Positions 1,276-62,843 of a stretch of 64,000 bases of DNA are shown one piece after another (positions within the stretch are counted from its first letter, which is position 1; each line of letters begins with the position of its first letter). A program made the translations under genes and the position numbers. The notes under the pieces were generated by a model. It was not told the origin of the DNA, made no database searches, and saw only the letters and a list, made by a program, of their open reading frames with translations. The stretch is from a bacterium (GTDB lineage: Bacteria > Zhuqueibacterota > QNDG01 > JAFGCO01), in contig JAFGCO010000059.1 in the NCBI GenBank assembly GCA_016932575.1, positions 2,975 through 66,974 of the forward strand, written 5' to 3'.

Positions 1276-2421
1276 ATGAACAAAATGCCATTGTTGATTT
1301 GGATTTTTCTGTTAATCTATATCTGCTTTTTACCGGCACAGGATAATGTTTCAGTATTGCGCAGCGGAGAACGATTATTAATCAGTGCAAAAGGGCAATT
1401 CGGGCTGGGAACAGATATTCTTGAAGAGGATGCAGCACTTCTTGTGCTGGCCAAAGCCAGAGATGCGTCTGTTCAGCATGCAATACAATATTTAATGAGA
1501 AATTCGTCGATCATTCCGTCCCTTAAAAAAGACAGAGAAGGTGTTGCCCTGGCATTGGCATTGATGTCCATTGCAGAAGAAACACCGGATAAAATTTATT
1601 CGAAGGGCCAGCAGCAACTCAGCATCAAATTTGTGATGGAATTAAATTTGAATCTTTTGAGCCAACGACTCAATCAGGTTCAAAAACAACCCTGGCTTTT
1701 CAGATCTTATCAGATGGAGCATGAAAGATTCGAGTCGCTTTACCGGAGATTGATCAAGATTGAATCTCAGAATAATACTTCAGGATTTCAGGAAATTCAG
1801 GCAATTGTAAAAGCGTTGAAAGCTTCAGAATGGGTTCGAAAAGGACTCCTGTCAGAAAATACCGCTGCTCAGGTTCAGCAATTTGACCAGGCAGTTATAC
1901 TGGATCCTGATTATGCGTTTGCCAGGTTTCAGAGGGGCAAAGCCTACAGTTTAATGCAGGCTTATGAAAAAGCCGTGGATGATTATAATGTATTAATCGA
2001 GAAATATCCTGACTGGACCGAAGTATATCACGCGCGCGGTCTTGTATATGGTTATCTTGAAAAATACGATCAAGTGATAGAAGATTATCAAAGGGTGTTA
2101 GGTAAAGATCCTAATTGTATTTCTGCACTGATTAACCAGGGGATCGCCTACAGCAAAACAAACCAGCTGGAAGCTGCACGGGCGGATTATCAGAAAGTAC
2201 TGGAAATTCATCCGGAACATGTAGTGGCAAATTACAATCTGGGGTGCATTTATGCGCTTCAAGGCGACCAGTCAGCTGCTTTGAAATCCATCGAATCGGC
2301 ATTCAGGAACGGATACTCCGATTACGATGCCGTTATGACTGATGAAGATTTGAAATCCCTTCATGCCAATCCGGAATTTAAGACGATGATTGAAGAATAT
2401 AAAAAATCATCACTCAAATGA
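1276..2421 (+). CDS. secreted TPR-repeat protein
   Basis: N-terminal signal peptide (LLIWIFLLIYICFLPAQ). The C-terminal half has several 34-aa TPR-like repeats (AYxxAxxDYxxxLxxxP pattern). GGGAG RBS. Confidence 0.8.
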   Translation: MNKMPLLIWIFLLIYICFLPAQDNVSVLRSGERLLISAKGQFGLGTDILEEDAALLVLAKARDASVQHAIQYLMRNSSIIPSLKKDREGVALALALMSIAEETPDKIYSKGQQQLSIKFVMELNLNLLSQRLNQVQKQPWLFRSYQMEHERFESLYRRLIKIESQNNTSGFQEIQAIVKALKASEWVRKGLLSENTAAQVQQFDQAVILDPDYAFARFQRGKAYSLMQAYEKAVDDYNVLIEKYPDWTEVYHARGLVYGYLEKYDQVIEDYQRVLGKDPNCISALINQGIAYSKTNQLEAARADYQKVLEIHPEHVVANYNLGCIYALQGDQSAALKSIESAFRNGYSDYDAVMTDEDLKSLHANPEFKTMIEEYKKSSLK

Positions 2422-2570
2422 AATCTTCCGGCAAGCGACTGATTTTAAAGATTTATTTCATGCGTGTAACACATTCCAGGCAGCCTGCCATTATCATTTG
2501 CATCAGTTTTGAATATTTGACTGGTACCGCAGGATTAAGGCCAATTTATATTAAAAAAGGAGCTCTGATC

Positions 2571-3929
2571 ATGCACTCCTCTGAAAAGGCAGAGGTAATC
2601 CCGCTTATTGGGGTAGACAAGCCGGTTTTTAAAATATTGTGCTTTGGTTTTATGATTGCCCATCTTTCTCTTTTTACACAAGACTGGCAATCTTATCATA
2701 CAGGAAACAGTGCATTGCCCAGCAATACAGTCCGCGCCGTATGTGTTGAACCCGACGGGGTGAAATGGTTCGGTACGGATGCAGGTCTGGTGCGTTATGA
2801 CGGATCTGAATGGCGTGTGTTTGTTAAAACTGAAGACAGACAAACCCTCGCGGATGATCATATTACTGATATTGCCTTTGAAGTGTCCGGCTACGGTCCT
2901 GAAATCTGGGTGGGAACGCAGAATGGTCTGACCATTCTGGATGTGGACGGATTTACTTTTGCCACACCGTATCGGAGTGATAATCGTCCTCTTTTGGGCA
3001 ATCGAATCAATGCTGTGGCTGTAGACAGCAATCATGTGAAATGGTTTGCCACGAACAACGGAGTGTCTATTTTTAACGGCAGTAACTGGTGGGCACTGAC
3101 GGAGGAGAATGACAAGCTGATCCATAATGAAGTTCTATGCATAGGCGTGGACAACGAATGCGACAGCCTGTGGCGGTATTTCGGTACATCTGAAAAGGGT
3201 GTCTCCCGGATTTATTATCAGGACCTGGATGCTGTTACGACAGCGTCTCCATACAACACAAACTGGACGATCATGATGTCAGATTCCGTTTTTGCCTTTC
3301 ATGTCACATATACTCAAAAGCATTGGATCGGTACCAGCTTCGGTGTCTGTGAGCACGATTCCACAGAGACCAAGCGAAATTGGAACATCTATACGACTTA
3401 TGAAGGTCTGGTTCAGGACAATGTGCTTTCCATTGCCGAAGCACAGGACGGCAGTATGTGGTTTGGTACACGTGGCGGAGTATCTCATTATTATCATGGT
3501 AAAATTATCAACTACACAATCGATGACGGACTTGCAGGTAATGTCGTGTATGATATAGCGATTGATAAGGACGGTTCACTCTGGTTTGCCACCAATGGTG
3601 GTGTGACCCGTCTTTCAAATATCAAGTCAATCGGTGAGATGCCTCATGAAAGCGGACTGGTCATGAATTATCCGAATCCTTTCAATCCGTCGACCACGGT
3701 TCAATATGAAGTGACTCGCAGCGGTTTTGTCCGGCTTGTTATTTACGATCTTACAGGAAGAGAAGTCGACCGGCTGGTAAATGCAATTCAGGGACCGGGA
3801 ACTTATCGAGTTGTGTGGAATGGCACGGATCGTCTGGGGCGTTCCGTTCCGGCGGGTGTTTATATTGCCGGGTTAACGATTAAAGGATTGGGTATGGTAA
3901 ACAGCATAAAAATGATTATAATGAAATAA
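2571..3929 (+). CDS. beta-propeller (two-component-regulator propeller-like repeats) protein with T9SS type A C-terminal sorting domain
   Basis: Repeated WFGTDAGL / WVGTQNGL / WFATNNGV / WFGTRGGV / WFATNGGV blades. The C-terminus reads NYPNPFNPSTTVQYEV...GVYIAGL...K. A strong AAGGAG sits 7 nt before the ATG at 2571, and a hydrophobic signal-like segment follows that start. Confidence 0.7.
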   Translation: MHSSEKAEVIPLIGVDKPVFKILCFGFMIAHLSLFTQDWQSYHTGNSALPSNTVRAVCVEPDGVKWFGTDAGLVRYDGSEWRVFVKTEDRQTLADDHITDIAFEVSGYGPEIWVGTQNGLTILDVDGFTFATPYRSDNRPLLGNRINAVAVDSNHVKWFATNNGVSIFNGSNWWALTEENDKLIHNEVLCIGVDNECDSLWRYFGTSEKGVSRIYYQDLDAVTTASPYNTNWTIMMSDSVFAFHVTYTQKHWIGTSFGVCEHDSTETKRNWNIYTTYEGLVQDNVLSIAEAQDGSMWFGTRGGVSHYYHGKIINYTIDDGLAGNVVYDIAIDKDGSLWFATNGGVTRLSNIKSIGEMPHESGLVMNYPNPFNPSTTVQYEVTRSGFVRLVIYDLTGREVDRLVNAIQGPGTYRVVWNGTDRLGRSVPAGVYIAGLTIKGLGMVNSIKMIIMK

Positions 3930-4039
3930 CAGGTTGGGGAACATGTATCTCCGGGATGCCTTATGCACCTCTCCTGAAGGAAAGCCGTTTATATGTCTAT
4001 ACAATTGAGAACAGCATTTTTGGCAAAGGAGATGATTTG

Positions 4040-6019
4040 ATGAATTTTTGTAATAAACGATTTTTCAGCAGTCGGCCCGAAAAAAAACTTTCGATCCCGG
4101 CACAGCTTTTTCTTCCGATTACCGGTCTGCTTTCCGCCCTGTGGATGCTGCTGCGGATTATCCCCAAGCCCACGCGAGCCACCTATCCCTGCATGAAAGT
4201 CGCGGCTCCGCTGGCGAGCACGTTCATTGCGTATTCTGTGGGTATTCTCGTGTCCGCTTTTTCCATCAAAAAAGCCAGATCCGCCTTTCGGCGGAAACGG
4301 TTTCAACTGATGTTCGTGTGTTTGCTTGCGGTTGTGATATCAATCGGATGGATGACGCTCCAGCCGACTCAGGATATTCTGGCCGGTCATCAGGATACCG
4401 GATACTTTGAAGATCCCCTGGGGCCGAATCAGCCCATTGGCGAAGCCAGGGGAATTTATCCGGGCCGGGTAGTCTGGGTATACAATCCCGATGCGACCAA
4501 TGAACACTGTACTAATGCAAACCATGATGACGCCTATTTTCAGAAGCATAATACCGATCAGGCGGTTGTGGATCAGATGTTTTCCAGGGGCATTCTTGAA
4601 TTGACCGGCAAAGAAACACATGCCGAAGCCTGGAATGCCATATTCCGCTATTTTAATATAAATCAAGGAAAAGGGGACACTGGTTATCAGCCGGATGAAA
4701 CACTGTTCATTAAAATCAATGCAGTCACCGCCTATAATGGAGCAGAACCAGACGGAAAAATGTCCAGATATGTCTCCATTGAATTTGACACGTCTCCGCA
4801 AACCATACTGGCCATGCTGAGACAGCTGGTCAATGAAGCCGGTGTTCCCGAAGATAAAATTTATATCGGCGATCCCATGTGTGATATCTGGAATACGCTG
4901 TACGATAAATTTTATGCTGAATTTCCGAATATCAAGTATGTGTCACAGGGAAATGTAACCGGCAGATACAAGTTAAAACCCGATACCGATCCGGGTATTT
5001 ATTATTCGGATCAGGGAACCGTCATGGATCAAATCAAGAGCCACAATTTCTTTGTTGAAATGATGAATGCGGATTATCTGGTGAACATTCCTTCTATGAA
5101 GGGGCATCGCTGGGCGGGAGTCACATTTTTTGCCAAGAATCATTTCGGATCGAATACGGCCGACCATTCATGGGAATTGCATAAAGGCCTGATGAAACCG
5201 GATGATGATCCTTTAAGGTCCGGTTACCGTTTATATCGGGTTCTTGTGGATATTATGGCGGATAAAAATCTTGGAGGCAATACTCTGCTTTATTTTATGG
5301 ACGGCCTCTGGGCGACTTCTTATGAGCACCAAAAGCCCCAGAAATTTAAGTCTGCTCCGTTTAATAATGACTGGTGTTCGTCTCTTTTCTTTTCTCTGGA
5401 TCCTGTGGCTATTGAATCAGTCTGCCTGGATATTATGCAAAAGGAGTTTAAAGAAGAGGATATGTCTGTCAAACCGCCGCGTTACACATATGTTCAGTGG
5501 GAAGGGATTGATGATTATCTTCATCAGGCCGCAAGTGCCGAATGGTGGCCGGAGGGGATTATTTATGATCCTGATAAGACGGGTTCATCCATCGCGAGTC
5601 TGGGTACACATGAGCACTGGAACAATGAAACAGATATGCAGTATTCCCGGAATCTTGGTTCAGGTAATGGCATTGAACTGGTGAAACTTTTTCAAGCCAC
5701 GGTTGTGGAAAAACCACCGAAAATCGTGGACCATTACCGGTTGTCGGGAGCTTATCCCAATCCGTTTAATCCTCAAACGAACATTCGTTTTAAGCTGACT
5801 GAAAATGCTTTTGTGAGTTTGGCGATTTACAATATTCATGGCAGGAAAGTGCGTACCCTGGTGCAGGCAGAACAATCGGCCGGGACCCATGTGGCTGTAT
5901 GGAACGGTTGTGATGCAGGGGGACGATCATTGCCTTCCGGTGTATATCTGTACCGGTTTCAGATCCGGACGGGGGAAGTTACGGATATGAAATACGGGCA
6001 GATGGTGCTGATGAAGTAG
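4040..6019 (+). CDS. DUF362-like domain protein with N-terminal TM segment and T9SS type A C-terminal sorting domain
   Basis: DUF362-like blocks are present (LFIKINAVTA, PEDKIYIGDPM, IPSMKGHRWAGVTFFAKNHFGS). The C-terminus reads AYPNPFNPQTNIRFKL...GVYLYRF. AAGGAG lies 8 nt before the ATG at 4040. Confidence 0.6.
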   Translation: MNFCNKRFFSSRPEKKLSIPAQLFLPITGLLSALWMLLRIIPKPTRATYPCMKVAAPLASTFIAYSVGILVSAFSIKKARSAFRRKRFQLMFVCLLAVVISIGWMTLQPTQDILAGHQDTGYFEDPLGPNQPIGEARGIYPGRVVWVYNPDATNEHCTNANHDDAYFQKHNTDQAVVDQMFSRGILELTGKETHAEAWNAIFRYFNINQGKGDTGYQPDETLFIKINAVTAYNGAEPDGKMSRYVSIEFDTSPQTILAMLRQLVNEAGVPEDKIYIGDPMCDIWNTLYDKFYAEFPNIKYVSQGNVTGRYKLKPDTDPGIYYSDQGTVMDQIKSHNFFVEMMNADYLVNIPSMKGHRWAGVTFFAKNHFGSNTADHSWELHKGLMKPDDDPLRSGYRLYRVLVDIMADKNLGGNTLLYFMDGLWATSYEHQKPQKFKSAPFNNDWCSSLFFSLDPVAIESVCLDIMQKEFKEEDMSVKPPRYTYVQWEGIDDYLHQAASAEWWPEGIIYDPDKTGSSIASLGTHEHWNNETDMQYSRNLGSGNGIELVKLFQATVVEKPPKIVDHYRLSGAYPNPFNPQTNIRFKLTENAFVSLAIYNIHGRKVRTLVQAEQSAGTHVAVWNGCDAGGRSLPSGVYLYRFQIRTGEVTDMKYGQMVLMK

Positions 6020-16285: not shown

Positions 16286-18064
16286 TTATTTAAGCAGAAG
16301 GATTTTTTTCTGATCCTGCCAGTGTTCGGTTTCCAGACGGACAAGATAAAGACCGGATTGTAGACGCTTGCCCAGATCGTCTGCTGCTTTCCAGATAACC
16401 GTATGATGCCCGGCCTCAACGGAATATTGATCGATGCGTCCTACCCGGCGGCCCGCTGCGTCGAATACGGTGAGTCGGATATCCGATGGCCGGTCCAGAA
16501 TAAATTGAATGCGTGTGGTGCTGTTGAACGGATTTGGATAATTTTGTGAGAGCCCGAATTGCTCTGGTGATGCGATTTCATTAATTTTTGACAGGTCGAT
16601 TTCTTCTGAACGGGCTGTAAGGTTGACTGAAGACAAGAGCTGACCATAGAGTGTTTCCGCGAAAGTCTGATTCTGGTTGGCCCCCAATAAATATGAGGTA
16701 AAGCTGAAATCCAGATTGACCGGTTTGTCATGCCGGGTATTAAAAAAGCGAAGCCCGCTGTCACCATATGAAATGTAATCTCCGGAATCATCGGCTATCA
16801 GAATATCCTGATCGGCCTGTCCGCCGTCCTGATTATCAAAATAATACAAAGACACATCATCCCAGTTGGATTCGGCAAAATCGAACAGGTTAAACATGGT
16901 TCCCTGGTTTCCTGTGGCCATGGTCCAGACCCGAAGGCGCTCTCCTGTTGTTATATCAACTTCTGTATTTATCTGATCTGTCTGACCATCGATGGATACC
17001 TCGCTGTTATGCGGATTGAAAAATTTCATTCCCGTTGCGTTCTCATTGAAATCCCATGATTGCCGTAAATAGTCGACTTCGATCACCAGCTGCATGGACG
17101 GTTCATCCAGGGCTTCCCGGATACTGTCCGGATCGAGTACTGTTCCGCCTTCAGATGTCCCGGAGAATGGATAATTTTTCGTGGTAATATAAAATTCTGC
17201 TCCTTCCAGAGGGGCACCGAGCCCAATGCCCATCCGCACTTCACGAATGATTCTGACCACAGGCTGGTCCGTGTAGGCGAGGTAGGTGTCATTATCAAAC
17301 TGCATTAAAATCTGTTCTGTGGCACTGTTGGCATCATCCCGGCCCCATGTCAACTGAAGGCCCGACCAGTCAACATACCCATTTAATCGTAATTTCTGTG
17401 TATCAAAAATATCCTGGCCGGATCCATAAGGGGGCCTGATCAGAATATCTGATATGAGTCCGTCTTGCTGATTGATTGTCATGGAATAGGCCAGGCTTTG
17501 AACGGTATGGGTTCCCGGATCGAATTGCATGGCGTACCTGTCGGCCACATCCGCGGGCATAACCAGCGTGCCCGACCTGTAGATATAGGCGTAAGCGCTT
17601 TCACCACTCAGCGGATCCGTGATTTCAAGCTCACACCTGTGGTTTGCCCTGGCTTCCGCATTATCGATCCAATCATGATCAGGGGCCTTGTCCCCCAAAT
17701 CCCGGATCATAAATACCAGTTCATCATCGCCGTCGAAGCCCGGCAGTGTATCAGGCTGGACATAATCCGGATTTATATTGGCGATGATATAAAAATGGCG
17801 CTCCCGTTCATTTTCGCCTTTTGCCAGGTCCGGGTCGGGTAATTTGGCCCGTTCGTCGATCTGGAACGGGATCATGGCCCAGGCGCCTTCCCGGTATGCG
17901 TAGACAAATATTTCATTCACCGGAATGCCCTTCACAGGCTGGATGTCCGAACCGAGAATAACCATTGGTTCATATGGCCGGTCTTCATAAGGTTTACCGC
18001 TGTATAAGATTCCTGCCGTCAGGAACAGAAGCAGGCTCTGACAGATTCGGATGGATACTTTCAT
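16286..18064 (-). CDS. hypothetical secreted protein with T9SS type A C-terminal sorting domain
   Basis: Signal peptide present. The C-terminus reads QNYPNPFNSTTRIQFIL...GLYLVRLE...K. First gene of a three-gene co-directional set. Confidence 0.65.
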   Translation of the reverse strand: MKVSIRICQSLLLFLTAGILYSGKPYEDRPYEPMVILGSDIQPVKGIPVNEIFVYAYREGAWAMIPFQIDERAKLPDPDLAKGENERERHFYIIANINPDYVQPDTLPGFDGDDELVFMIRDLGDKAPDHDWIDNAEARANHRCELEITDPLSGESAYAYIYRSGTLVMPADVADRYAMQFDPGTHTVQSLAYSMTINQQDGLISDILIRPPYGSGQDIFDTQKLRLNGYVDWSGLQLTWGRDDANSATEQILMQFDNDTYLAYTDQPVVRIIREVRMGIGLGAPLEGAEFYITTKNYPFSGTSEGGTVLDPDSIREALDEPSMQLVIEVDYLRQSWDFNENATGMKFFNPHNSEVSIDGQTDQINTEVDITTGERLRVWTMATGNQGTMFNLFDFAESNWDDVSLYYFDNQDGGQADQDILIADDSGDYISYGDSGLRFFNTRHDKPVNLDFSFTSYLLGANQNQTFAETLYGQLLSSVNLTARSEEIDLSKINEIASPEQFGLSQNYPNPFNSTTRIQFILDRPSDIRLTVFDAAGRRVGRIDQYSVEAGHHTVIWKAADDLGKRLQSGLYLVRLETEHWQDQKKILLLK

Positions 18065-25557: not shown

Positions 25558-25729
25558 CTGGCGTTACTCCAGTGGGATTTTTTGGGAGCAAAAGATACAA
25601 TTCTTCAGTAAGCCTGATTATCTTAACGTTTATTTCAATGAATGTCAAGAAAAAAAGTGCCTTGATTATCGATCGAGGATTTTCTATGTTTTATAGAAGG
25701 ATGAATTGACCCTGTCTGAGGAGGATCGT

Positions 25730-26566
25730 ATGTTTTTTAAAAAAATCAGCTTGATTTGTTTCTGGGGGACGATATTATTTTGCTTTTCAACATATTCACA
25801 AAGTCTGGAATCCGGTGTGACTTTAACCTTGGAATTACTGCCTATGGAAAAGCAGGAAAAACTCAGGGAGTTTCACGAAGCCATTGAAAGATATATCGAT
25901 GAGCATGACTGGACGGGCCATGGCTCCGAAGAACCGCTGACCATTACCATTAATCTTCAACTCCAGGAAGCAAGCAGCAGTTTTGAGGACAGGTATTCGG
26001 GAATTTTTATGATATCCAATAATTCCGATATGCAATATTATGATAAATACTGGCGTTTTCCTTATTCTCCTGAGACGATGCTGGAACACAGCAGTGTGTA
26101 TCATCCGTTTACGGGTTTTATTGATTTTTATATTTATGTGATTTTGGGGGGGGAATTTGACAAGCTGGGCCCGATGCTGGGGACACCGTTTTATGAAAAA
26201 GCCAGACAGGTAGCCGATCAGGCTTTATTTGATGCACAGTTCAGTACCGGCTGGAAAGAACGTTCAGAGTTTATCGACCGGCTCATGGGCGAGGAAAACA
26301 AACTCTTCAGAAAGATGAAAGACCAATACTATCTTGGATTGTCTTATGTCGAAGATGATGATGCCATGGTTAAGAAATATTGCCGGGAGGCTGTCGATCT
26401 AATGGAAAAAATATTTAAAAAAGATTCGGAGCATAAGGACGCCATAAATTTTTTAAAAGCGCATCATCTTGAGATCATTGAAATTTTTCAGGATGAACCG
26501 GATGTGCTAAGAAAGATGATCCGGATCGATCCGGATCGGTCAGATACATATAAGAAGTATTTGTAG
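25730..26566 (+). CDS. DUF4835 family protein (PorD-like T9SS-associated protein)
   Basis: Contains DKYWRFPY, FIDFYIYVILGGEFDK, GWKERSEFIDRLM and FLKAHHLEIIEIF blocks, as in DUF4835. GAGGAGGA lies 5 nt before the ATG at 25730, and a signal peptide is present. Confidence 0.6.
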   Translation: MFFKKISLICFWGTILFCFSTYSQSLESGVTLTLELLPMEKQEKLREFHEAIERYIDEHDWTGHGSEEPLTITINLQLQEASSSFEDRYSGIFMISNNSDMQYYDKYWRFPYSPETMLEHSSVYHPFTGFIDFYIYVILGGEFDKLGPMLGTPFYEKARQVADQALFDAQFSTGWKERSEFIDRLMGEENKLFRKMKDQYYLGLSYVEDDDAMVKKYCREAVDLMEKIFKKDSEHKDAINFLKAHHLEIIEIFQDEPDVLRKMIRIDPDRSDTYKKYL

Positions 26567-32918: not shown

Positions 32919-32924
32919 ACGGGA

Positions 32925-51920: not shown

Positions 51921-51950
51921 TCATTCATATTTGAATCAGGAGAAGCAATC

Positions 51951-52518
51951 ATGTTAAAATATAAAAACATAGCGACCGTTTGTAGTGTGATATTGGTCAA
52001 TTTGTCGCTGTCCGCTCATTTGAACAGCCAGACTTACTGTATCAGATCATCGGTGATCAGCTGCGGCGGGATTCATAAGACATCTTTAAACTATCAAAGT
52101 AGCAACTCATTGGGAGTTACAGCAGCCATTGGTTTGTCACAGGATCCTTCCACGACCCTTCTGGCAGGCTTTCAGGAAACCTGCATTCTCCTTCTGACCA
52201 CGTCGTTTCATGAATCCGGTTATCAGATTGGGGATAATATGCCGACGGAATTCAGGCCAGAATTTTCCAAATCCTTTTAATCCGCTGACACAAATACAAT
52301 ATGCGATTTCGGAGCCGGTTCATGTGATACTCACTGTTTACAACGCCCTGGGCCGGGAGATAGGCAAACTTGTGGATGAAAAACAAATTCCGGGATTCTA
52401 TACGGTCAACTGGGATGGAAATGGTCAGGGCAGTCGACATTTTGACAGCAGCCTCTATTTCTATCGTTTGCAGGCGGGTCAATTTGCTGCCATTCGGAAG
52501 ATGATATTGATCAAGTAA
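51951..52518 (+). pseudogene. small T9SS type A cargo gene interrupted by a +1 frameshift
   Basis: ORF 51951..52280 (signal peptide) reads ...PTEFR and then runs out of frame. QNFPNPFNPLTQIQYAI... continues in the +1 frame from 52258 to 52518. A single extra nucleotide near 52257 explains the break. Confidence 0.5.
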
Positions 52519-52956: not shown

Positions 52957-55407
52957 ATGAAAAGAATAACTCTGTTTTTTATACCGCTTCTTCTACTACT
53001 ATTTATTCTTGTGCTTGCTCAGGTCGTTCCGGTTCCCACAACATTAAATGATTTTTTTCTGCCAGGATCCCAGCCAGGCCAGTCCGGCAATACGGAACTG
53101 CCGGACAAATGCGACAATTGTCATGGCGGATATGATCTCTCAGTCGAACCCTCTTTCAACTGGCGCGGCGGCATGATGTCCCAGGCAGCCCGCGATCCCT
53201 TCTATTATGCCTGCATGGCCATTGCCAATCAGGACGCGCCCGAAAGCGGAGATCTCTGTATCCGGTGTCACTCACCGCGTGGCTGGCTTGACGGGCGTTC
53301 CACGCCTACAGACGGATCCGCGTTAACCAGCGGTGACCGTGAAGGGGTTCACTGCGGCTTCTGCCATAAAATGGTGATGACATCCCCCCTGGGTGAAAAT
53401 CCTTTTCCTGAAGATTCGGTGTATACAGCAGATACCTATTCTGAGGATCAGGCCTATCTGGCAGATTTGAGCCATATTCCGGGCACAACGGCAAACGGTA
53501 TGTTTATCAATTCTGATGAGGGAGCGAAAAGAGGTCCGTTTGTTGATGCGGTTGCCAGGCATCAGATGTATTATTCCCCGCTGCATCAAACGTCGGATCT
53601 TTGCGGTACCTGTCACGATGTCAGCAATCCGGTGTATGAGCGGACGGTCTTAAATACCTATGTGCCGAATGATTTTGACAGCATGGCTTCTAATTTTGAT
53701 CCTTACACAATGTTTCCGGTCGAGAGAACCTACAGTGAATGGCTGAAGAGTGCCTACAATTCTCCAGAGGGTGTGTATGCTCCGCAGTTCGGCGGAAATA
53801 AAGCTTATGTTTCCACCTGCCAGGACTGCCATTTAAGGGATGTAACCGGAGCAGGCGCCAATAAAAAGGATGTGCCGATCCGGAACGATCTGCCTCTGCA
53901 TGATATGACAGGCGGCAATACATTTATTGCAAAATTGATCGATCAGCTCTATCCCGGTGAAAGTGATACGGCCGCATTAAATCAGGGAATCGGGCGGGCC
54001 CGTTCCATGCTGGAGCTGGCCGCTTTTATGGAAGTCAACATGGATGGCAAGGTTGTGACTGTGAAGGTGACCAATCAGACGGGGCACAAACTGCCTTCAG
54101 GATATCCAGAGGGCCGCAGAATATGGATCCATCTGACGGCGTTGAACAACAGCGGTGTTTTTTACGAATCAGGCGCATATAACTTTCTGACTGCGGATTT
54201 GATTCACGACCCGGATATCAAGATTTATGAAATCAAGCCGGGGATATCGAAATCCCTGTCTCCTGTTGTTAATTTTCCAGCCGGGCCGTCGTTTCATTTT
54301 GTTTTGAACGATACGATTTATAAAGACAACCGTATTCCCCCCCGTGGGTTCAGCAATACAAGTTTTGAAGATATCCAGTCTCCGCCCGTCGGTTATGCCT
54401 ATGCGGACGGTCAATATTGGGATGAAACCGTCTATATCCTGGATCAGGTGCCCACCAAAGTGGAAGCCACACTTTATTATCAGACGACAAGCAAAGAATA
54501 TGTGGAATTTTTAAGAGATGAGAATCATACAAATGACTGGGGGCTCACATTTTACGGATTGTGGGAAGACCATGGAATGTCTGAGCCTGTCATCATGCAA
54601 AGTGCCAGTCAGACTTTGAATGGATTTATTGACACGGAAGCGGCTGTCGGCGGCAGCCTGGTTTTATTCAACGAAGGCGATGTGGATCCCGGAGACGGAC
54701 ACACTGTTGAAATGACGTTTAACAGTCTTTCCGGCAGCGGCGATATCACGGTGCTGCAGCTCAATCAGGCACCGGCAAATCCACCTGAACTCCCTTATAT
54801 CGAAGTCGCCTGGAATATTTCAAAATCCGCAGGTATCGATGCGTTTTCATCCGATGCCGTTTTTCATTACACGGATGAAGATATTTCAGGGATGAATGAA
54901 AGCAAGCTCAGGGTTTATTTCTGGAATGGTACGGCCTGGCAATATATGGGGGGGACTGTAAATCAGGCCGATAATGAGGTTGCTGTTTCCCTGTCTCTGA
55001 CCGGTGATTTTGCTTTATTTGAAACGGATGAAGTGCTGCTGGCCTGCAAAGTGTTTATGGAAGGTCCTTATCAGGCAGGGACTGGGATGCGAACCCTTTT
55101 ACAGGAGGCAGGCTGGATACCCATAACATCTCCCTATTCAGACAACAGGGTGGTGGCCCGCGTTCCCAGTCAAATCACAGACTGGGTATTTGTGGAACTC
55201 AGAAGCACAGCCAATGGCACCCTGGTGGCGGGCCGATCATTTTTCCTGAGAAATGACGGGATCGTTACGGATGACAATGGTATAACGACCGATTTATCCA
55301 TCCCCGGCGTTTCAGACGGATATTATTATATTGTGATGCATCACCGGAACCACCTGTCCCTGATGAGTGCTTCATCACGGTACCTGACTGGCATCAGCTC
55401 ACCCTGA
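52957..55407 (+). CDS. secreted penta-haem c-type cytochrome with large non-haem region and unclassified C-terminal domain
   Basis: Signal peptide present. There are five CxxCH motifs: CDNCH at 53110, CIRCH at 53257, CGFCH at 53353, CGTCH at 53602 and CQDCH at 53818. AGGAG RBS. Confidence 0.8.
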   Translation: MKRITLFFIPLLLLLFILVLAQVVPVPTTLNDFFLPGSQPGQSGNTELPDKCDNCHGGYDLSVEPSFNWRGGMMSQAARDPFYYACMAIANQDAPESGDLCIRCHSPRGWLDGRSTPTDGSALTSGDREGVHCGFCHKMVMTSPLGENPFPEDSVYTADTYSEDQAYLADLSHIPGTTANGMFINSDEGAKRGPFVDAVARHQMYYSPLHQTSDLCGTCHDVSNPVYERTVLNTYVPNDFDSMASNFDPYTMFPVERTYSEWLKSAYNSPEGVYAPQFGGNKAYVSTCQDCHLRDVTGAGANKKDVPIRNDLPLHDMTGGNTFIAKLIDQLYPGESDTAALNQGIGRARSMLELAAFMEVNMDGKVVTVKVTNQTGHKLPSGYPEGRRIWIHLTALNNSGVFYESGAYNFLTADLIHDPDIKIYEIKPGISKSLSPVVNFPAGPSFHFVLNDTIYKDNRIPPRGFSNTSFEDIQSPPVGYAYADGQYWDETVYILDQVPTKVEATLYYQTTSKEYVEFLRDENHTNDWGLTFYGLWEDHGMSEPVIMQSASQTLNGFIDTEAAVGGSLVLFNEGDVDPGDGHTVEMTFNSLSGSGDITVLQLNQAPANPPELPYIEVAWNISKSAGIDAFSSDAVFHYTDEDISGMNESKLRVYFWNGTAWQYMGGTVNQADNEVAVSLSLTGDFALFETDEVLLACKVFMEGPYQAGTGMRTLLQEAGWIPITSPYSDNRVVARVPSQITDWVFVELRSTANGTLVAGRSFFLRNDGIVTDDNGITTDLSIPGVSDGYYYIVMHHRNHLSLMSASSRYLTGISSP
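55036..55404 (+). other. shared C-terminal domain, copy A (EGPY...DWVFVELR...YYIVMHHRNHLSLMS)
   Basis: Last 123 aa of the cytochrome. Aligns with copies B and C. Confidence 0.8.
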
Positions 55408-55768: not shown

Positions 55769-56431
55769 TTACAGCGCGATTTGAATGCCGATTTTGGGTT
55801 CAAAACAGAAAATAAGATCCGTTTCATCGGCTTCATCTTTATCAGCAATGAACGTGGCATTCAACTGACAGTCAAGTAACAACATGTCGGTGATTGAAAT
55901 CAAGCCTCCCCATCCGGTATAAAAGGCTACGCACGGATCCCATTCTTTTGTTGCAACAGATTCTTTTTCCACGGTGATTTCAGTATCCCCTTGGGAGAGC
56001 CGGTATCCTGCTCCTGCACGAATGTAATATTTATTTAATGCGTCAGGCGTCAGAACGAACCGACCGCCAATCATAATCATCTGAGAACTTCCGGCATCGA
56101 AATTAATGTCTTTTTGACTTTCCTTTGGCACCCCTTTATTGACTGAGAATTTTATATTGCGCTCAAGATCATTGTCGATTCTCAATATTGAGTATCGATA
56201 CTCCAATTCAATTTGAATGCTGTTTAAAGCACTGTATATCAAGTTGGCCCCAAGACCGAAACTCGGATCAAAGTATGCGTTTTGGGTTGTTTCATATTCC
56301 GGAACCAGATATGAAACGCTCAGACCGGTGATGATTTTGGGCATTTCCGATGAAAATAATTGTGTGCTCATACCCAGAAAAATTAGCAGACATACAATAA
56401 TCATCAATCCGGATAATGATTTTTTTTTCAT
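55769..56431 (-). CDS. small outer-membrane beta-barrel protein (220 aa)
   Basis: Signal peptide and alternating hydrophobic/aromatic beta-strand pattern (YRYS, YIRAGAGYRL, FYTGWGG). The family is not resolved. Confidence 0.5.
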   Translation of the reverse strand: MKKKSLSGLMIIVCLLIFLGMSTQLFSSEMPKIITGLSVSYLVPEYETTQNAYFDPSFGLGANLIYSALNSIQIELEYRYSILRIDNDLERNIKFSVNKGVPKESQKDINFDAGSSQMIMIGGRFVLTPDALNKYYIRAGAGYRLSQGDTEITVEKESVATKEWDPCVAFYTGWGGLISITDMLLLDCQLNATFIADKDEADETDLIFCFEPKIGIQIAL

Positions 56432-56647: not shown

Positions 56648-59600
56648 ATGAAAACAAGATGTTTCTGTGTGTCTGTTTTAATTGTCTTTTTCAATGCACG
56701 GACGGTTATTGCCCGGGGAACCCTGACTTTTGACCATTCCGAAGTGGCTGATTTATGCGCGCAGGGAAAGGCGCTGGGAGATATCAACGGAGACGGCATG
56801 CCGGATGTCATTATTGCCGAAGGAGAATTCAGCCCGGGAGCGTTCGCCTGGTACAAGTATCCCAACTGGGAAAAATATGATATCCATGCGGTCGCATTTT
56901 CCGAAATGGATTATGTGCCGGACTGCCAGGTGGCGGATATGGACAATGACGGGGATCTCGATATCATTGTGCCCAACAGCCACAACAGCGCGAACAAGAG
57001 CCTGTGGTGGTTTGAAAATCCCCTGAATGACGGCGGCAACCCTGAAACGGACGGATTTACCCGGCATGTGGTCTGGTCCGCATCGGACAGCCATATCAAG
57101 GATGTGTCCGTGGCCGATTTTGACCAAGACGGCAAACCGGATATTGTGCTTCGTTTTACCTCCAAAGCGGCGGTGTTTTTTCAGAATTCAGCGGACAACT
57201 GGACCCAGGTCTCCTGGAGCATCGGGGGATCCGAAGGTATGGGAACCGGGGATATCGACTGGGACGGAGATACGGATGTGATTACCAATGGTGTGTTCTA
57301 TCAGAATCCCGGGAACCGGGTCGATTCATGGACGCAGAAAACCATCGGTTCATACGCGCAGAGCACCGCCTGCCGTGTGCAGGCGGCAGACATTAACGGA
57401 GACGGGCATGAGGAACCGGTTTTCAGCAGTTCCGAATACGCCGGATATGCAGTTTCGTGGTATTCCGCAGCGGATCCTGAAAACGGTCCCTGGACCGAGC
57501 ATGTGATCGGATATGTTGACTATTGTCATACCCTGCAAACCGGGGATGTGGACCGGGACGGAGATATCGATGTCGTGGGCGGTTCCATGCCTTCGGCGAG
57601 CACGGATGAAGTGGTTCTTTTTGAAAACACAGGAAACGGCAATACGTGGACACGTCATACGGTGGATTCCAAGTCAACCTATATTGCCAAGATGGCAGAT
57701 ATGGGCGCTGACGGCGATCTGGACATAGTGGGGAGCCGGAGCTATGATGTCGCGCCGATTGATTTTTTTGAGAATCAGCTCGACCCGGTTCTGCCGCTGG
57801 ATCAGTGGCAATATATTCAGGCGGATAACACCAGAATGGCCCAGGCTTTCGGGCTGGATATGGATGACGTGACCGGTGATGATTTTCTGGATATCGCATC
57901 CGGTCCCTATTTCTACCGGAATCCGGGCGGAAATATGACGTCGGCGTGGACCCGCATGAATCTGCCGAACAGTGTGGATGCGGTACTGATCACGGATCTG
58001 GACGATGACGCCTTTGGCGATATTGTCGCTCAAAAGACTGTGGATGACGCGCTGCATTTCTATTGGCTTGAAGCCGGAGATGCGCAGGGAAGCAGCTGGA
58101 CACAGATGGCTGATATCGGTTCCGTGCCCCAGGCCAGTCATACGCTTGGATCCCAGGGGCATCGCATGGTACAGATCGAATCCGGGGGAAAATATGAAAT
58201 TGTGGTCACCAGCGGCAACGGTCTGTATTATTTTGAAATTCCGGCAAGTCCGGAGGCCGGTTCCTGGCCCTTGACCCATGTCCACAGCAATCCCACGGAC
58301 GAGGGATTTGGTGCAGGTGATATCGACGGTGACGGAGATCAGGATCTGGCCTGCGGCACCGGATCCACCAAACGCGTGGAATGGTATGAAAATCCCGGAG
58401 ACGGCTCCCCGTCATGGACCGCCTATCATATTGGCGACATGACGGAATCGGTATGGACCGACCGGTTTGCTGTCGCAGATATGAACGGGGACAATAAGCC
58501 GGACATTATCGGCACGGAGGAGAACGGAGCCAGCACAGGCGCGGAAACCTACTGGTGGGAACAGCCGGAAGATCCCACGTCGGGCGGCTGGACACGGCAT
58601 CTGGTCGTGTCGCAGGCGACAACCAATTCCATGGATGCAGCGGATATGGATCATGACGGGGACACGGATATCATTTTGGGAGAGCATCGCGGTACGGAAA
58701 AGCTGTCTGTCTGGGAAAATGACGGAACGGGATCATTTACTGAAAATGGAGTGGATGATGGCAAGGAAAGCCATCTGGGCGCAAAAACCGCTGATCTTGA
58801 CAGTGATGGCGATCCGGATATTGTCAGCATTGCCTGGGATGATTATTCTTATCTTCATATATGGCGGAACGATGCGATCCAGAGCGGCATGCAGACGGTT
58901 GCTGCTCCGGATATCTCTCCAGACGGCGGGTCTTTTACCGGCTCCGTTTCAGTCACGCTTTCCACTGCCACCTCCGGTGCAGCGATTTATTATACCACAG
59001 ACGGGACAGATCCGGAAGATTTCTCAACCGAATATTCAGGCGCGTTCACTGTATCCCAGAGTCTGACAGTCAAAGCCAGGGCCTATAAAAGCGGAATGAA
59101 TGCGAGCAGCATTACGTCTGCCGCATTTACTATTGAACAGGATGCGACACCGCCCGAAATCAATTCAGTGTCCGCGAGCGGAAATCCCAATCGTGTTCAA
59201 ATCGGTTTCAATGAAGATCTGGATGCATCCACCTCAGAAACAGCCGCCAATTACACTATTGATTCGGGCATCTCTGTTACCCTGGCCGAATTATCCGTGG
59301 ATAAAAGGAATGTTTTTCTGGCAACATCCATACTTTCTCCGGATATCACATATACACTTACCGTGAATGATGTGGAAGATAGTCATGGCAATCCCATCTC
59401 GCCGGATACGCAGGAGACCTTTCAGTATATCCCTGTAAATCTGGGAGAGGGCCTTGCTGCCTGTTATTCTTTGGATGAGATTTCGGGAACAGCGGTCCAT
59501 GACCAGTCCGGCAATGGTCATGACGGTACCCTGCATGGCGGTCAGTGGTCCTCCGGACATATTGATAATGCTGTTGATTTCGACGGCACCGATGACTACA

Positions 59601-60451
59601 TTGATTTAGCCACGCTTGATATCAGCGGCGGTGCGCTGACCCTGGTCTGCTGGTTTTATGCAGATGATTTTGGCAACGAAGATGCACGATTCGTCTCCAA
59701 AGCCACAGGCGTCTATGAAAATGACCATTACTGGATGCTGAGCACCACAGGCAGCAGCGGACAGTACAGGCTGCGGTTCCGGTTAAAAACGGAAGGGTCC
59801 ACCTCGACTCTGATCGCATCGTCCGGCAATCTGCCTCTCCAAACCTGGACGCACGCGGCTGCTGTTTATAACGGTTCTGAAATGATACTTTATATGAACG
59901 GCTCTGAAGTGGGATCCCTGGGAAAGACAGGCGCATTGAGTACGGATTCTGAAGTGTCCGCCTGGATCGGCAGTAATCCGCCGGCTGTGGGAAGCAATGC
60001 ATTCGACGGCAGGATCGACGAGGTCCGGATTTACAACCGCGCACTGTCAGAGACCGAGATTACGGCTTTGAGCACCTGCCCGGTCAAGGTCAATCTCAAA
60101 CTTTACCTGGAAGGCCCTTATCAGCCGGGTGAAGGCCAGATGTCCGCTTCCCTGAACACCGGAGAGCATTTGCCTTTGACATCGCCTTATCCGGAAAATC
60201 AGCGCTCTGTTTTATCCATACCCGGGACCATCGTGGACTGGGTGCTGGTTCAGCTTCGAACCGGTGAGGAGGGCCCGACGGTTGTATCCAAAAGCGTATT
60301 GCTTCGAATGGACGGATGTATTGTCTCTGACAACGGCACAACCGAATCCGTCACTTTGAATGTACCGGAGGGTTCTTATTATATCGTGGTCAATCACCGG
60401 AATCATCTGTCTGTGATGAGCGATGAGACAGTAGAATTAAGCGCTGATTGA
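56648..60451 (+). CDS. giant secreted FG-GAP/VCBS-repeat protein with chitobiase-C-like, Ig-like and LamG modules and the shared C-terminal domain
   Basis: More than 10 DxDxDGxxD FG-GAP-type loops are present (DINGDGMPDV, DMDNDGDLDI, DFDQDGKPDI and others). AIYYTTDGTDP marks the chitobiase-C-like module. The LamG-like module reads GNGHDGTL...VDFDGTDDYI...FDGRIDEVRIYNRALS. Confidence 0.8.
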   Translation: MKTRCFCVSVLIVFFNARTVIARGTLTFDHSEVADLCAQGKALGDINGDGMPDVIIAEGEFSPGAFAWYKYPNWEKYDIHAVAFSEMDYVPDCQVADMDNDGDLDIIVPNSHNSANKSLWWFENPLNDGGNPETDGFTRHVVWSASDSHIKDVSVADFDQDGKPDIVLRFTSKAAVFFQNSADNWTQVSWSIGGSEGMGTGDIDWDGDTDVITNGVFYQNPGNRVDSWTQKTIGSYAQSTACRVQAADINGDGHEEPVFSSSEYAGYAVSWYSAADPENGPWTEHVIGYVDYCHTLQTGDVDRDGDIDVVGGSMPSASTDEVVLFENTGNGNTWTRHTVDSKSTYIAKMADMGADGDLDIVGSRSYDVAPIDFFENQLDPVLPLDQWQYIQADNTRMAQAFGLDMDDVTGDDFLDIASGPYFYRNPGGNMTSAWTRMNLPNSVDAVLITDLDDDAFGDIVAQKTVDDALHFYWLEAGDAQGSSWTQMADIGSVPQASHTLGSQGHRMVQIESGGKYEIVVTSGNGLYYFEIPASPEAGSWPLTHVHSNPTDEGFGAGDIDGDGDQDLACGTGSTKRVEWYENPGDGSPSWTAYHIGDMTESVWTDRFAVADMNGDNKPDIIGTEENGASTGAETYWWEQPEDPTSGGWTRHLVVSQATTNSMDAADMDHDGDTDIILGEHRGTEKLSVWENDGTGSFTENGVDDGKESHLGAKTADLDSDGDPDIVSIAWDDYSYLHIWRNDAIQSGMQTVAAPDISPDGGSFTGSVSVTLSTATSGAAIYYTTDGTDPEDFSTEYSGAFTVSQSLTVKARAYKSGMNASSITSAAFTIEQDATPPEINSVSASGNPNRVQIGFNEDLDASTSETAANYTIDSGISVTLAELSVDKRNVFLATSILSPDITYTLTVNDVEDSHGNPISPDTQETFQYIPVNLGEGLAACYSLDEISGTAVHDQSGNGHDGTLHGGQWSSGHIDNAVDFDGTDDYIDLATLDISGGALTLVCWFYADDFGNEDARFVSKATGVYENDHYWMLSTTGSSGQYRLRFRLKTEGSTSTLIASSGNLPLQTWTHAAAVYNGSEMILYMNGSEVGSLGKTGALSTDSEVSAWIGSNPPAVGSNAFDGRIDEVRIYNRALSETEITALSTCPVKVNLKLYLEGPYQPGEGQMSASLNTGEHLPLTSPYPENQRSVLSIPGTIVDWVLVQLRTGEEGPTVVSKSVLLRMDGCIVSDNGTTESVTLNVPEGSYYIVVNHRNHLSVMSDETVELSAD
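60083..60448 (+). other. shared C-terminal domain, copy B (EGPY...DWVLVQLR...YYIVVNHRNHLSVMS)
   Basis: Last 122 aa of the FG-GAP/LamG protein. Confidence 0.8.
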
Positions 60452-60548: not shown

Positions 60549-62843
60549 ATGATCCGATTATGCTGGTTCCAAATTTTCTTGTTTGGCATGGCAGTCACGA
60601 TTTACCCGCAAAGCGTGAAAACCATTGAACAGCCTGAAATCAATCCGGATTTTATAGAGTGGCTGGATAAAGATGCAGAAAGCCTTTCAGACGAAGGGCT
60701 AGGTCTGGGGTATCTGCCGCATCCCTGCCAATTGCATAGAGAATTGCCGGGGCCTCTCATGAGCCGGACATTCGGTCTGGAATCCCTGCCATCTGTTTTC
60801 GATCTGCGAATCACAGGGGACATCACCTCAGTCAAGAATCAGGGCAGCTGCGGTTCATGCTGGGCGTTTGCCACCATGTCGGCGGTTGAATCTCACTGGA
60901 AAATGAACGACCGGGGGATCTTTGATCTTTCAGAAGACAATCTGAATACCTGTCATCCGCCCTTTGTATGGCTCCCCTGTCAGGGAGGGAATGATTTAAT
61001 ATCACTGGCTTATTTTGCGAGGGGATCGGGTCCGATGTCTGAGAGCGACGATCCTTACAGTCCGAATCACAAAAAGGTGGACTGTCCATCCGGTTTATAC
61101 CCGGCGGGTTTTGTTACCTCGGGCTGGTTTATTCCCACAAACGATCCCGCGCTTATTAAAAGTCTCATTATGCAATACGGCGCGTTATTTACTTCGATGT
61201 ACTGGTCGTCCTCTTATTTTAATTATTCCAGCAAGACCTATTATTACAGCGGGACTGCTTCTCCCAACCATGGCGTCGCGCTTGCGGGCTGGGATGACAA
61301 CAAAATTACGGCCGGGGGCACCGGCGCCTGGATCGTGAAGAACAGCTGGGGAGCCGGCTGGGGGGAAGGCGGTTATTTTTATATTGCCTACCAGGACAGC
61401 CGGGTGAATTCGGATGTGACTTTGTTCAGCGGTTATATGGAAGAAGATCCGATGAATGCGGTTGATACCTATTCTGAATCGGGCTGGTCAGGCTATAATA
61501 TGGGATACGGCAGCAATGCGGCGGACGGTCTTGTGAAGTTTGTTGCTTCCGGAAACCTTCAATTAACAAAAATAGGAACATGGACCGGGTATCCCGGGGC
61601 TGTGGTCTCGATCGATATTTATGATGACTTTAACGGCACAGATTTATTGACCGGATTTTTGTGCTCCCTGTCTCCCCAGACGTGCACCTATGCGGGATAC
61701 CATACGTTTGAACTTCCCTCACCCGTCACTATTGCAGACGGGAACGATTATTATATTAAAATCCGATATGAAACAGCAGGGTACAATTATCCGGTGCCCA
61801 TTGAAGTGGTGATCGGCGGCTATTGCACTCCCTCCATCGAAACCGGTATATTCTGGTCAAAAACCACAGGATCCGCATACTGGAATTCAGAAGATTTAAG
61901 TGATAATGATCCGTGTGTCTATACATACACAAGTGCTGTTCTGGGCACAGTGGCAACGCCTTCGTTCGATCCGGAACCGGGAACCTACATGACTCCTCAA
62001 CTGGTGACGATTCAGTGTGTCACGCCTGATGCAGCCGTCTATTATACAACAAATGGCACGGATCCCACCGAAAGCGACAGCCTGTATGAAAATCCCGTTG
62101 TTGTCGATTCGACCCTGACATTAAAAGCCAGATCATTTAAGTCCCATTACCTTCCGAGCGAAACAGCTGCAGGCACATACACGATACCACCGCCGGTAAT
62201 CACAGTCACTTCACCCAACGGGGATGAAGAGTGGGAAACAGGGAGCCCTTACGATGTCCTGTGGACATCGACCGGAACCAGTGGAAATGTGCGCATTGAA
62301 TATTCTGCGAACAGCGGATCAGACTGGTCGGATGTGATATCGGGCACACCAGATGACGGCATCTATTCATGGATGGTCCCGGATACATCCTCGGGCAATT
62401 GCCTGGTGAGGATTTCCGATACAGAAGGAAGCCCGGTCGATACGAGCGATGGGGTGTTTACAATTTCAAACATTCCGTCGGTTCTGGTGCAAATCAAAAT
62501 CTGGATAGAAGGTCCTTATTCTTCGTCCGGAGACAGCATGACCACATCGCTTCAGACCGGAACCATCATTCCGAAAATATCTCCGTACAGCGACGGCCGT
62601 GAGGTGGACAGTATTCCGTCCGATATCACGGACTGGGTTTTTGTGGAGCTCAGAAGCACGGTAGAGGGTGACGCCGTGGTATCCGGATCGTTTTTCTTAA
62701 GGAAGGACGGATGGATCACAGAGATTGACGGTTTTAACACGAATCTGGAATTTGACAACGTTGAAGACGGACTGTATTATATTGTTGTCCGCCACCGCAA
62801 TCATCTCTCACTGATGAGCAGCGAACCGGTGCAGATGGAGTGA
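60549..62843 (+). CDS. secreted papain-family (C1) cysteine peptidase with chitobiase-C-like and beta-sandwich modules and the shared C-terminal domain
   Basis: Catalytic motifs are NQGSCGSCWAF (Cys), NHGVALAGWDD (His) and WIVKNSWGAGWGEGGYFYIAY (Asn). AVYYTTNGTDP marks the chitobiase-C-like module. Confidence 0.85.
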   Translation: MIRLCWFQIFLFGMAVTIYPQSVKTIEQPEINPDFIEWLDKDAESLSDEGLGLGYLPHPCQLHRELPGPLMSRTFGLESLPSVFDLRITGDITSVKNQGSCGSCWAFATMSAVESHWKMNDRGIFDLSEDNLNTCHPPFVWLPCQGGNDLISLAYFARGSGPMSESDDPYSPNHKKVDCPSGLYPAGFVTSGWFIPTNDPALIKSLIMQYGALFTSMYWSSSYFNYSSKTYYYSGTASPNHGVALAGWDDNKITAGGTGAWIVKNSWGAGWGEGGYFYIAYQDSRVNSDVTLFSGYMEEDPMNAVDTYSESGWSGYNMGYGSNAADGLVKFVASGNLQLTKIGTWTGYPGAVVSIDIYDDFNGTDLLTGFLCSLSPQTCTYAGYHTFELPSPVTIADGNDYYIKIRYETAGYNYPVPIEVVIGGYCTPSIETGIFWSKTTGSAYWNSEDLSDNDPCVYTYTSAVLGTVATPSFDPEPGTYMTPQLVTIQCVTPDAAVYYTTNGTDPTESDSLYENPVVVDSTLTLKARSFKSHYLPSETAAGTYTIPPPVITVTSPNGDEEWETGSPYDVLWTSTGTSGNVRIEYSANSGSDWSDVISGTPDDGIYSWMVPDTSSGNCLVRISDTEGSPVDTSDGVFTISNIPSVLVQIKIWIEGPYSSSGDSMTTSLQTGTIIPKISPYSDGREVDSIPSDITDWVFVELRSTVEGDAVVSGSFFLRKDGWITEIDGFNTNLEFDNVEDGLYYIVVRHRNHLSLMSSEPVQME
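62481..62840 (+). other. shared C-terminal domain, copy C (EGPY...DWVFVELR...YYIVVRHRNHLSLMS)
   Basis: Last 120 aa of the C1 peptidase. Confidence 0.8.

Follow-up and report, generated by a model that had tools for sequence, protein, structure and literature searches.

The closest described relatives of the protein considered here are two periplasmic cytochromes. ExtKL (GSU2937-2936) of Geobacter sulfurreducens, which is the same protein as MccSep, is a tetrameric pentahaem selenoprotein that acts as a polysulfide reductase (bioRxiv 10.1101/2025.11.18.688581). It resides in the periplasm and consists of a haem cap and an immunoglobulin-like (Ig-like) stem, its structure resembling that of PDB entry 5ZE8; its polysulfide site is formed by haem 2, which is His/Cys-ligated via C239 and lies beside selenocysteine 325 (Sec325) in a D-G-U-P loop, while catalysis is assisted by R83 and K372 (bioRxiv 10.1101/2025.11.18.688581). 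Entry 5ZE8 is the c552 of Thermochromatium tepidum, which is soluble and periplasmic and has likewise no known function (PMC11976967). The present analysis concerns a gene lying in a 64,000-nucleotide stretch of contig JAFGCO010000059.1 (hereafter the window, meaning the whole stretch of DNA analysed), which comes from a bacterium of the Zhuqueibacterota. The gene is an open reading frame (ORF) at positions 52957..55407 of the plus strand, which starts at an ATG and specifies 816 amino acids (aa). We estimate at about 0.6 the probability that its product is an extracellularly targeted pentahaem oxidoreductase with the c552/MccSep (PHC) fold.

The original prediction for this gene, a modular and exported pentahaem cytochrome, is supported by the signal peptide, the haem-binding motifs and the domain layout of the protein. 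Exactly five CxxCH motifs are present at the places predicted: CDNCH (haem 1, 53110..53124, aa 52-56), CIRCH (haem 2, 53257..53271, aa 101-105), CGFCH (haem 3, 53353..53367, aa 133-137), CGTCH (haem 4, 53602..53616, aa 216-220) and CQDCH (haem 5, 53818..53832, aa 288-292), all of them on the plus strand. The second motif corresponds in alignment to the catalytic haem 2 in MccSep. A search of the ORF beyond aa 292 found neither CxxCH nor variant motifs. Given the amino-acid composition of the window, only 0.0024 CxxCH motifs would be expected per 816 aa; among the other window ORFs of at least 100 aa, a single one contains the motif, in one copy. When 193 full-length homologues were aligned, with identities to the query down to about 40% (the set used for all values of residue conservation given below), each of the five motifs was found in 192-193 of them, and this strict maintenance of all ten haem-binding cysteines argues indirectly for haem attachment. 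The N-terminus, MKRITLFFIPLLLLLFILVLAQV, shows by its layout the n-region, h-region and A-x-A-like site of a Sec-type signal peptide, as had been predicted. The peptide would span aa 1-22 (MKRITLFFIPLLLLLFILVLAQ; 52957..53022, plus strand) and has no lipobox Cys; family conservation begins immediately past it, at VPTTLNDFF.

A homologue search rendered at least 7,928 clusters at 90% identity. The best homologues were 60-68% identical to the query, although the similarity spanned only its first 64-80%. When 50%-identity representatives were searched exhaustively with HMMER, 2,615 relatives emerged, 529 of them at E ≤ 1e-30. The conserved unit is a pentahaem core of haem cap plus Ig-like stem that extends from aa 23 to aa 547 (53023..54597, plus strand), so that the haems and about 255 aa of what had been described as a non-haem region belong together. 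Some family members consist of this core alone (for example P0087, of 539 aa). The roughly 400 aa that follow the fifth haem motif had been viewed as one large region fused to the cytochrome; they are indeed haem-free, but they do not make up a single fused extra, since aa 293-547 form part of the core and aa 548-696 are an orphan segment. Most of that region is thus the Ig-like stem of the cytochrome fold itself. The orphan segment (54598..55044, plus strand) is probably a beta-rich linker domain; it matched no Pfam or NCBIfam model, showed no kinship to any of 285 family proteins or to any ORF of the window or of the homologous loci, and was modelled by AlphaFold2 with a predicted local distance difference test (pLDDT) score of about 30.

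Searching the PDB with the sequence of the whole protein yielded no match. An AlphaFold2 model of the core was built from 53 sequences; beta strands were predicted at aa 356-553, with pLDDT values of 85-96 in parts. Comparison of this model with the PDB using Foldseek rendered 5ZE8 as the sole match at E ≤ 1e-3 (E = 5.1e-9, probability 1.00, target-normalised template-modelling score 0.53, for a model with a mean pLDDT of 61), and the family profile reached 5ZE8 by sequence too (E = 0.018). The match to the NCBIfam model of ExtKL (NF040886) was weak, covering aa 264-400 with E = 2.5e-6 and 26.3 bits versus a cut-off of 250. For a direct comparison with MccSep, its sequence was taken from the Extended Data of bioRxiv 10.1101/2025.11.18.688581 and aligned with hhalign. 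Local alignment covered aa 366-449 (probability 93.8-96, E from 1.8e-7 to 3.2e-9); global alignment, using the 193-sequence profile, gave a probability of 98.4 and a score of 76.8, with all five CxxCH motifs in register. As a control, MccSep was shuffled 25 times with its CxxCH motifs kept fixed; the shuffled sequences scored at most 8.9 in global alignments, as against 76.8 for the real one, and at most 44.8 in local alignments. Since the shuffles score far lower, the relationship to MccSep is real and not an artefact of the haem motifs. With its N-terminal cap containing five CxxCH motifs in order, its Ig-like stem bearing a GHxxPxGxP loop, and its similarity to 5ZE8, the core is a member of the pentahaem c552/MccSep (PHC) superfamily.

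Several other assignments were considered and rejected. Pfam matches to MtrC/OmcA (MtrC domain II/IV), c7, c3, c554 and cbb3-type cytochromes all fell below the gathering score and were driven by the CxxCH motifs. The MtrC/MtrF domain model PF22113 gave 20.5 bits versus a cut-off of 30, and no MtrC or OmcS fold was matched; nor was an adjacent porin with a periplasmic decahaem protein seen in the window or in loci L001 and L082-L085. As for NrfA/ONR/HAO and c554, there is no CxxCK motif, PF13435 reached 12 bits, and no such PDB match was found at E ≤ 1e-3. Kinship with the archaeal nanowires AvECN and PcECN was likewise discarded, both being absent among the 50 PDB matches listed. The comparison with known multihaem folds that had been suggested for this protein therefore yields a fold of the c552 type, not one like those of MtrC, OmcS, NrfA or c554, and the parallel that had been drawn with the surface cytochromes of Geobacter and Shewanella fails at the level of the fold, the relatives c552 and MccSep being periplasmic.

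The stem loop GHKLPSGYPEGRR (aa 376-388; 54082..54120, plus strand), delimited by hhalign against MccSep and by alignment to 5ZE8, aligned with GHSIPDG-U-PTPNR in MccSep and with PHAMPTGAPFRN in 5ZE8. This alignment puts Tyr383 (nt 54103-54105) at the position of selenocysteine 325. The residue is Tyr in 181 of the 193 homologues (94%), His in eight and Cys in none, and the ORF contains no in-frame TGA. Its surroundings are very well preserved: G382 is found in 193/193, each of E385, G386 and R387 in 192/193, and the EGRR stretch is conserved at 98-99%. The equivalents of MccSep R83, K372 and H319 are R79, kept in 96% of the homologues, K427, kept in 69%, and H377, kept in all 193; H315, conserved in 100%, has no confident counterpart in MccSep. 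A candidate axial ligand is Met74 (53176..53178, plus strand), which matches, in the context WxxS[IM]H, a His conserved in MccSep (H74) and in 5ZE8. Position 74 is occupied by Met in 190 homologues (98%) and by His in the remaining three, the pattern expected of an axial-ligand swap to His/Met, and one haem is probably His/Met-ligated via M74. The only cysteines outside the CxxCH motifs are C86 (58% conserved) and C697, located in the tail; as no Cys other than those of the motifs is conserved, a His/Cys-ligated haem of the C239 type is excluded. Candidates in the C239 region are M252 (64% conserved) and the near-invariant stretch F253-P254-x-E256-R257-T258, and overall six conserved His or Met residues are candidates for the five distal positions. 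As judged from these alignments, a stem loop so strongly conserved, together with the residues around it, points to catalysis rather than to conduction alone.

The sources named for the homologues include Zixibacteria, Latescibacteria, Eiseniibacteriota, Rhodothermales, Calditrichia and Deferrimicrobium. Their names are generic (several are 'T9SS type A sorting domain-containing protein' at NCBI, and others 'PKD domain-containing protein' or 'cytochrome c553'), and a cluster look-up of ten divergent homologues yielded no functional names. C-terminal domains were counted among the best 119 homologues, leaving out the query, from precomputed Pfam annotation. A sorting domain of the type IX secretion system (T9SS type A, PF18962) was present in 48 of them and a dockerin in 19; PKD, FN3, cadherin-like and HYR domains were found as well. 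Such a variety of C-termini of the exoprotein type argues for an extracellular location of the family, and display outside the cell through T9SS is strongly suggested at the family level. It had been proposed that the cytochrome is displayed on the surface by a route not described for such proteins. The T9SS fusions uphold that idea for the family, but the part of it that relied on a tag in the tail of this particular protein found no support. No paper linking T9SS or sorting domains with multihaem cytochromes was found in the literature.

The protein ends in a module (aa 697-816; 55045..55404, plus strand) recognisable by an EGPY...HRNHL signature, here in a short form that lacks a dockerin-like extension. 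The original prediction that two neighbours, an adhesin-like giant and a protease, share this tail proved correct. The module forms the C-terminus of an FG-GAP/LamG protein (60074..60448, in ORF 56648..60451; phmmer E = 1e-27) and of a papain-family (C1) protease (62466..62840, in ORF 60549..62843; E = 8e-37), both on the plus strand. The tail matched no Pfam or NCBIfam model even at E ≤ 10, TIGR04183, PF18962 and TIGR04131 included, so it is neither a type A nor a type B T9SS domain by those models. AlphaFold2 modelled it from 70 sequences as a confident beta-sandwich (pLDDT 93.3) for which the PDB offered nothing at E ≤ 1e-3; the weak matches (E 0.06-0.4) were to generic Ig-like domains, including the IgSF domain of gingipain Kgp and the X-module of a type II cohesin-dockerin complex. 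At least 581 copies were found in a scan of one genome per GTDB species. Their hosts are Ignavibacteriales, Melioribacteraceae, KSB1, Calditrichia, Chlorobiota and many Bacteroidota, with Aquimarina, Winogradskyella and Lacinutrix among the cultured carriers. Elsewhere the module is attached to C10 and S8 proteases, endonuclease I, CotH and FG-GAP proteins, and nine other cytochrome homologues bear it together with the dockerin-like part.

Among 116 module-containing ORFs examined, about 85% continue for 90-130 aa as a dockerin-like double repeat (GDxNxDGxIxxxD, twice), which usually terminates in QVP or QLP. In two proteins (L048 and L066) a genuine T9SS type A domain lies further downstream of the module. 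A minority of the ORFs, mostly from Ignavibacteria-like genomes, stop directly after HRNHL, as do the three window genes; a frameshifted dockerin remnant was sought 3′ of all three window tails and none was found. The reading of this tail as a surface tag is consequently not supported in its original form, given that no sorting domain is recognised in it and that elsewhere it is mostly internal. It is a widespread and undescribed module of exoproteins of the Fibrobacterota-Chlorobiota-Bacteroidota (FCB) group that resembles an X-module preceding a dockerin more than a terminal sorting signal, and, being both widespread and devoid of annotation, it merits a family definition of its own. Three further observations concern this module. 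The conserved Q-V/L-P at the C-terminus of the long form could itself be a recognition motif. A homologue search with a 41-sequence alignment of the tail brought up many stand-alone proteins of ~237 aa (P0286-P0405), all annotated as hypothetical, that comprise nothing beyond a signal peptide, an HRNHL module and a dockerin-like repeat. Finally, module genes often occur, as in the window, in tandem clusters of two to four that differ in their cargo (L003, L006, L008, L010, L012, L039, L041, L061 and L068).

If the protein is an extracellularly targeted oxidoreductase, the following sequence of events can be proposed. The signal peptide would direct export of the cytochrome through the Sec system, after which the periplasmic cytochrome c maturation machinery would attach five c-type haems to an alpha-helical cap (aa about 23-330), predicted to pack onto the Ig-like stem (aa about 355-547). 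Homology with MccSep suggests that electrons would travel from haem 1, which would be exposed, via haems 3 and 4 to haem 2, and the latter would face a pocket formed in part by the stem loop GHKLPSGYPEGRR. This pocket would retain an Arg (R79) and usually a Lys (K427), with Y383 in place of the catalytic selenocysteine and no haem-ligating Cys. The protein would thus be a redox enzyme or an electron-exchange module whose chemistry differs from polysulfide reduction by selenocysteine and Cys, and whose substrate lies outside the cell. The C-terminal beta-sandwich would more likely help to attach or handle the protein once it is secreted than be the actual T9SS signal.

A number of points weigh against this proposal. 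Confidence in the AlphaFold2 model of the core is low (mean pLDDT 61, and 50-75 in the haem cap), although modest values are expected when a haem protein is modelled without its haems. The axial ligands and pocket residues are putative ones, assigned by alignment, and the alignment is unreliable near MccSep Cys239. The characterised relatives, c552 and MccSep, are periplasmic, and scanning the tail with Pfam and NCBIfam revealed no recognised outer-membrane export signal in this cytochrome. No cytochrome c maturation genes were found within the 64 kb of the window, and no electron-supplying partner (a porin-cytochrome or a periplasmic multihaem protein) lies near the gene, either in the window or in four homologous loci. 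Metagenome contigs from the source sediment and a metatranscriptome of the same study gave only spurious 20-nt matches, and with them neither evidence of a transcript nor independent backing of the assembly.

Three other explanations were weighed. The EGPY...HRNHL domain might be a new class of C-terminal signal, for T9SS or for another outer-membrane export route, that takes the cytochrome out of the cell. It stands at the extreme C-terminus in several Ignavibacteria loci as well as in all three genes of the window, is a beta-sandwich of a size similar to that of known T9SS C-terminal domains, is mainly restricted to T9SS-bearing FCB lineages, and has cargo resembling that of T9SS; however, we find this role unlikely, given the dockerin-like repeats of 90-130 aa that follow in about 85% of the 116 ORFs, the true type A domain downstream of it in L048 and L066, where it cannot be the terminal signal, and the lack of a significant structural match in the PDB. 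The protein might instead never leave the cell, being a periplasmic enzyme like MccSep or c552 with C-terminal domains used for oligomerisation or binding. This is difficult to reconcile with the bona fide type A domain borne by the same core in 48 of the 119 close homologues, or with a tail that otherwise sits on typical exoproteins (proteases, a nuclease) and, in the window, on two neighbouring proteins of the secreted type. Even allowing for both characterised relatives being periplasmic, for the absence of a recognised T9SS type A or B domain here and for the existence of core-only members such as P0087 (539 aa), a life confined to the periplasm seems very improbable.

The remaining explanation also places the protein outside the cell, but with no task other than conducting electrons. 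It would act at the cell surface as the terminal reductase, or oxidase, of insoluble Fe(III) or Mn(IV) oxides, humics or partner cells, would be functionally analogous to MtrC/OmcA and would have no active site for small molecules. An extracellularly targeted multihaem protein in sediment bacteria would suit that role, and with six His or Met candidates for five distal positions all the haems could be six-coordinate. The c552 fold has, in addition, been proposed to be linked to archaeal cytochrome nanowires (PMC11976967), and a role in extracellular electron transfer has been put forward for secreted multihaem cytochromes of Bacteroidota (PMC11495043), both of which would agree with conduction. 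Yet an identity of 60-68% maintained across phyla, together with an invariant stem loop at the position of the MccSep active site, is more enzyme-like than wire-like; neither an outer-membrane conduit nor a periplasmic partner was found nearby in five loci, and matches to MtrC and OmcS were sub-threshold or absent. A purely conductive function is for these reasons considered rather unlikely, and an extracellular pentahaem oxidoreductase of the PHC fold is the reading we prefer.

The cytochrome gene is preceded by a gap of 438 bp and its downstream genes are convergent, so it is probably monocistronic. The convergent ORF at 55769-56431 (minus strand; 220 aa) has a signal peptide, is beta-rich and looks like a small outer-membrane beta-barrel; it matched no Pfam or NCBIfam model and shows no kinship to the ORF that precedes the homologue in L082. 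Beyond it, at 55624-55598, lies a strong terminator-like hairpin. Upstream, at 50927-52518 (plus strand), lies a peptidase C10-like gene broken into four or more ORFs that differ in frame, which is either a pseudogene or the result of assembly frameshifts. Its last fragment (52210..52518) ends in a TIGR04183 type A domain (27 bits). The window contains four such domains in all, the other three being in the ORFs at 2418..3929, 3956..6019 and 16286..18064; the presence of these tags on other window proteins indicates that the host uses canonical type A tags, but not on the cytochrome. That the host would carry a T9SS had been predicted too, and the hallmarks are borne out by these four domains together with a PorD-like protein (DUF4835; 25706..26566, plus strand), with 87 bits versus an NCBIfam equivalog cut-off of 170, and a PorZ-like protein (2418..3929, plus strand), with Reg_prop repeats, a type A sorting domain and 75 bits versus a cut-off of 260. 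Scores below the cut-offs suggest a divergent T9SS in an FCB lineage outside Bacteroidota. The T9SS core genes gldKLMN, sprA and porV were not found within the 64-kb window, nor were other multihaem or porin-cytochrome genes.

A conserved gene neighbourhood was also looked for and rejected: none is shared by the four homologous loci, one of which lies on a 2.6-Mb Zixibacteria contig, and the isolated neighbours are too sparse. In L084, a Crp/Fnr-type regulator and a Fe/Mn superoxide dismutase precede the cytochrome homologue (P0036) and a T9SS-tagged multicopper oxidase follows it, while in L082 a rubrerythrin adjoins the homologue; these neighbours may hint at a link with oxygen or reactive oxygen species, in each case from a single locus. 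Two other arrangements were seen in the window. A bacterial alpha-2-macroglobulin (A2M; 1849 aa) adjoins a PBP1C-type penicillin-binding protein (810 aa) at 30486-38474 on the minus strand, the classical A2M-Pbp1C pair, and at 49052-50604 on the plus strand an ankyrin-repeat protein overlaps the start of a gene for a GH130 mannooligosaccharide phosphorylase, an unusual pairing.

Extracellular multihaem cytochromes are the basis of mineral respiration and of electrical interactions between microbes; to our knowledge, they come almost exclusively from porin-cytochrome systems of the Proteobacteria type and from cytochrome nanowires. Bacteria of the FCB superphylum, for their part, are usually seen as polymer degraders. 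We tentatively suggest, while regarding it as somewhat less than an even chance, that Zixibacteria, Latescibacteria, KSB1, Calditrichia, Rhodothermales and relatives possess extracellular pentahaem enzymes that make up a very large family of at least 7,900 sequence clusters, exported by T9SS or by a dockerin-type module, in which a haem-plus-tyrosine site replaces the haem-Cys/selenocysteine site. If so, there would be an unrecognised extracellular redox chemistry in abundant sediment heterotrophs, with sulfur species, reactive oxygen species, metals or humics as examples of what it might act on. Should these proteins leave the cell with their haems in place, T9SS would count as a new way of displaying redox proteins, multihaem cytochromes among them, on the surface, and an extracellular redox capacity missing from current metabolic reconstructions would have to be credited to many sediment lineages. 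The gene is a promising starting point in the search for extracellular redox activity that has been overlooked in sediments. In its family, the newly described active site of MccSep has undergone a natural experiment, Tyr having taken the place of selenocysteine and Cys ligation having been lost.

When set beside known systems, the tail can be compared with the C-terminal domains of T9SS type A cargo and with the X-module-dockerin dyads of type II in cellulosomes, which are likewise C-terminal beta-sandwich arrangements on secreted hydrolases. The likeness to the X-module lies in the common long form of the tail, where a dockerin-like double repeat comes next; the three window proteins lack this repeat, and the structural similarity of the tail to the X-module and to the Ig-like domain of Kgp is not significant. 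The PHC proteins of cable bacteria and Geobacter (sPHC/lPHC, Gsu2801) and PtdA were compared by their descriptions; these mention neither fusions to T9SS, dockerin or PKD domains nor hosts of the FCB group, and PtdA sits in a porin-multihaem operon while the query gene does not. The c552 of T. tepidum (5ZE8) shares with the query a two-domain plan, a similar spacing of haems 1-3 and a WxGSM after haem 1, but its identity is about 15%, and it has Ala at the position of Tyr383 and His at that of Met74. In common with MccSep, the query has an N-terminal cap whose five CxxCH motifs follow one another in the same order, an Ig-like C-terminal stem and a stem loop of the form GH-x-[IL]-P-x-G-X-P, and the positions matching R83, K372, H319 and H388 are conserved in its family. 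In contrast, its core is ~100 aa larger, with insertions between haems 3 and 4, between haems 4 and 5 and in the stem; it is fused to domains of the extracellular type, whereas MccSep is periplasmic; and its family occurs in phyla of the FCB group, whereas MccSep occurs in Desulfobacterota and Nitrospirota. The query is thus no MccSep orthologue, since it lacks the features that define MccSep while keeping the architecture. The PHC superfamily was already known; what is new here is the subfamily, with its active-site substitutions and its extracellular fusions.

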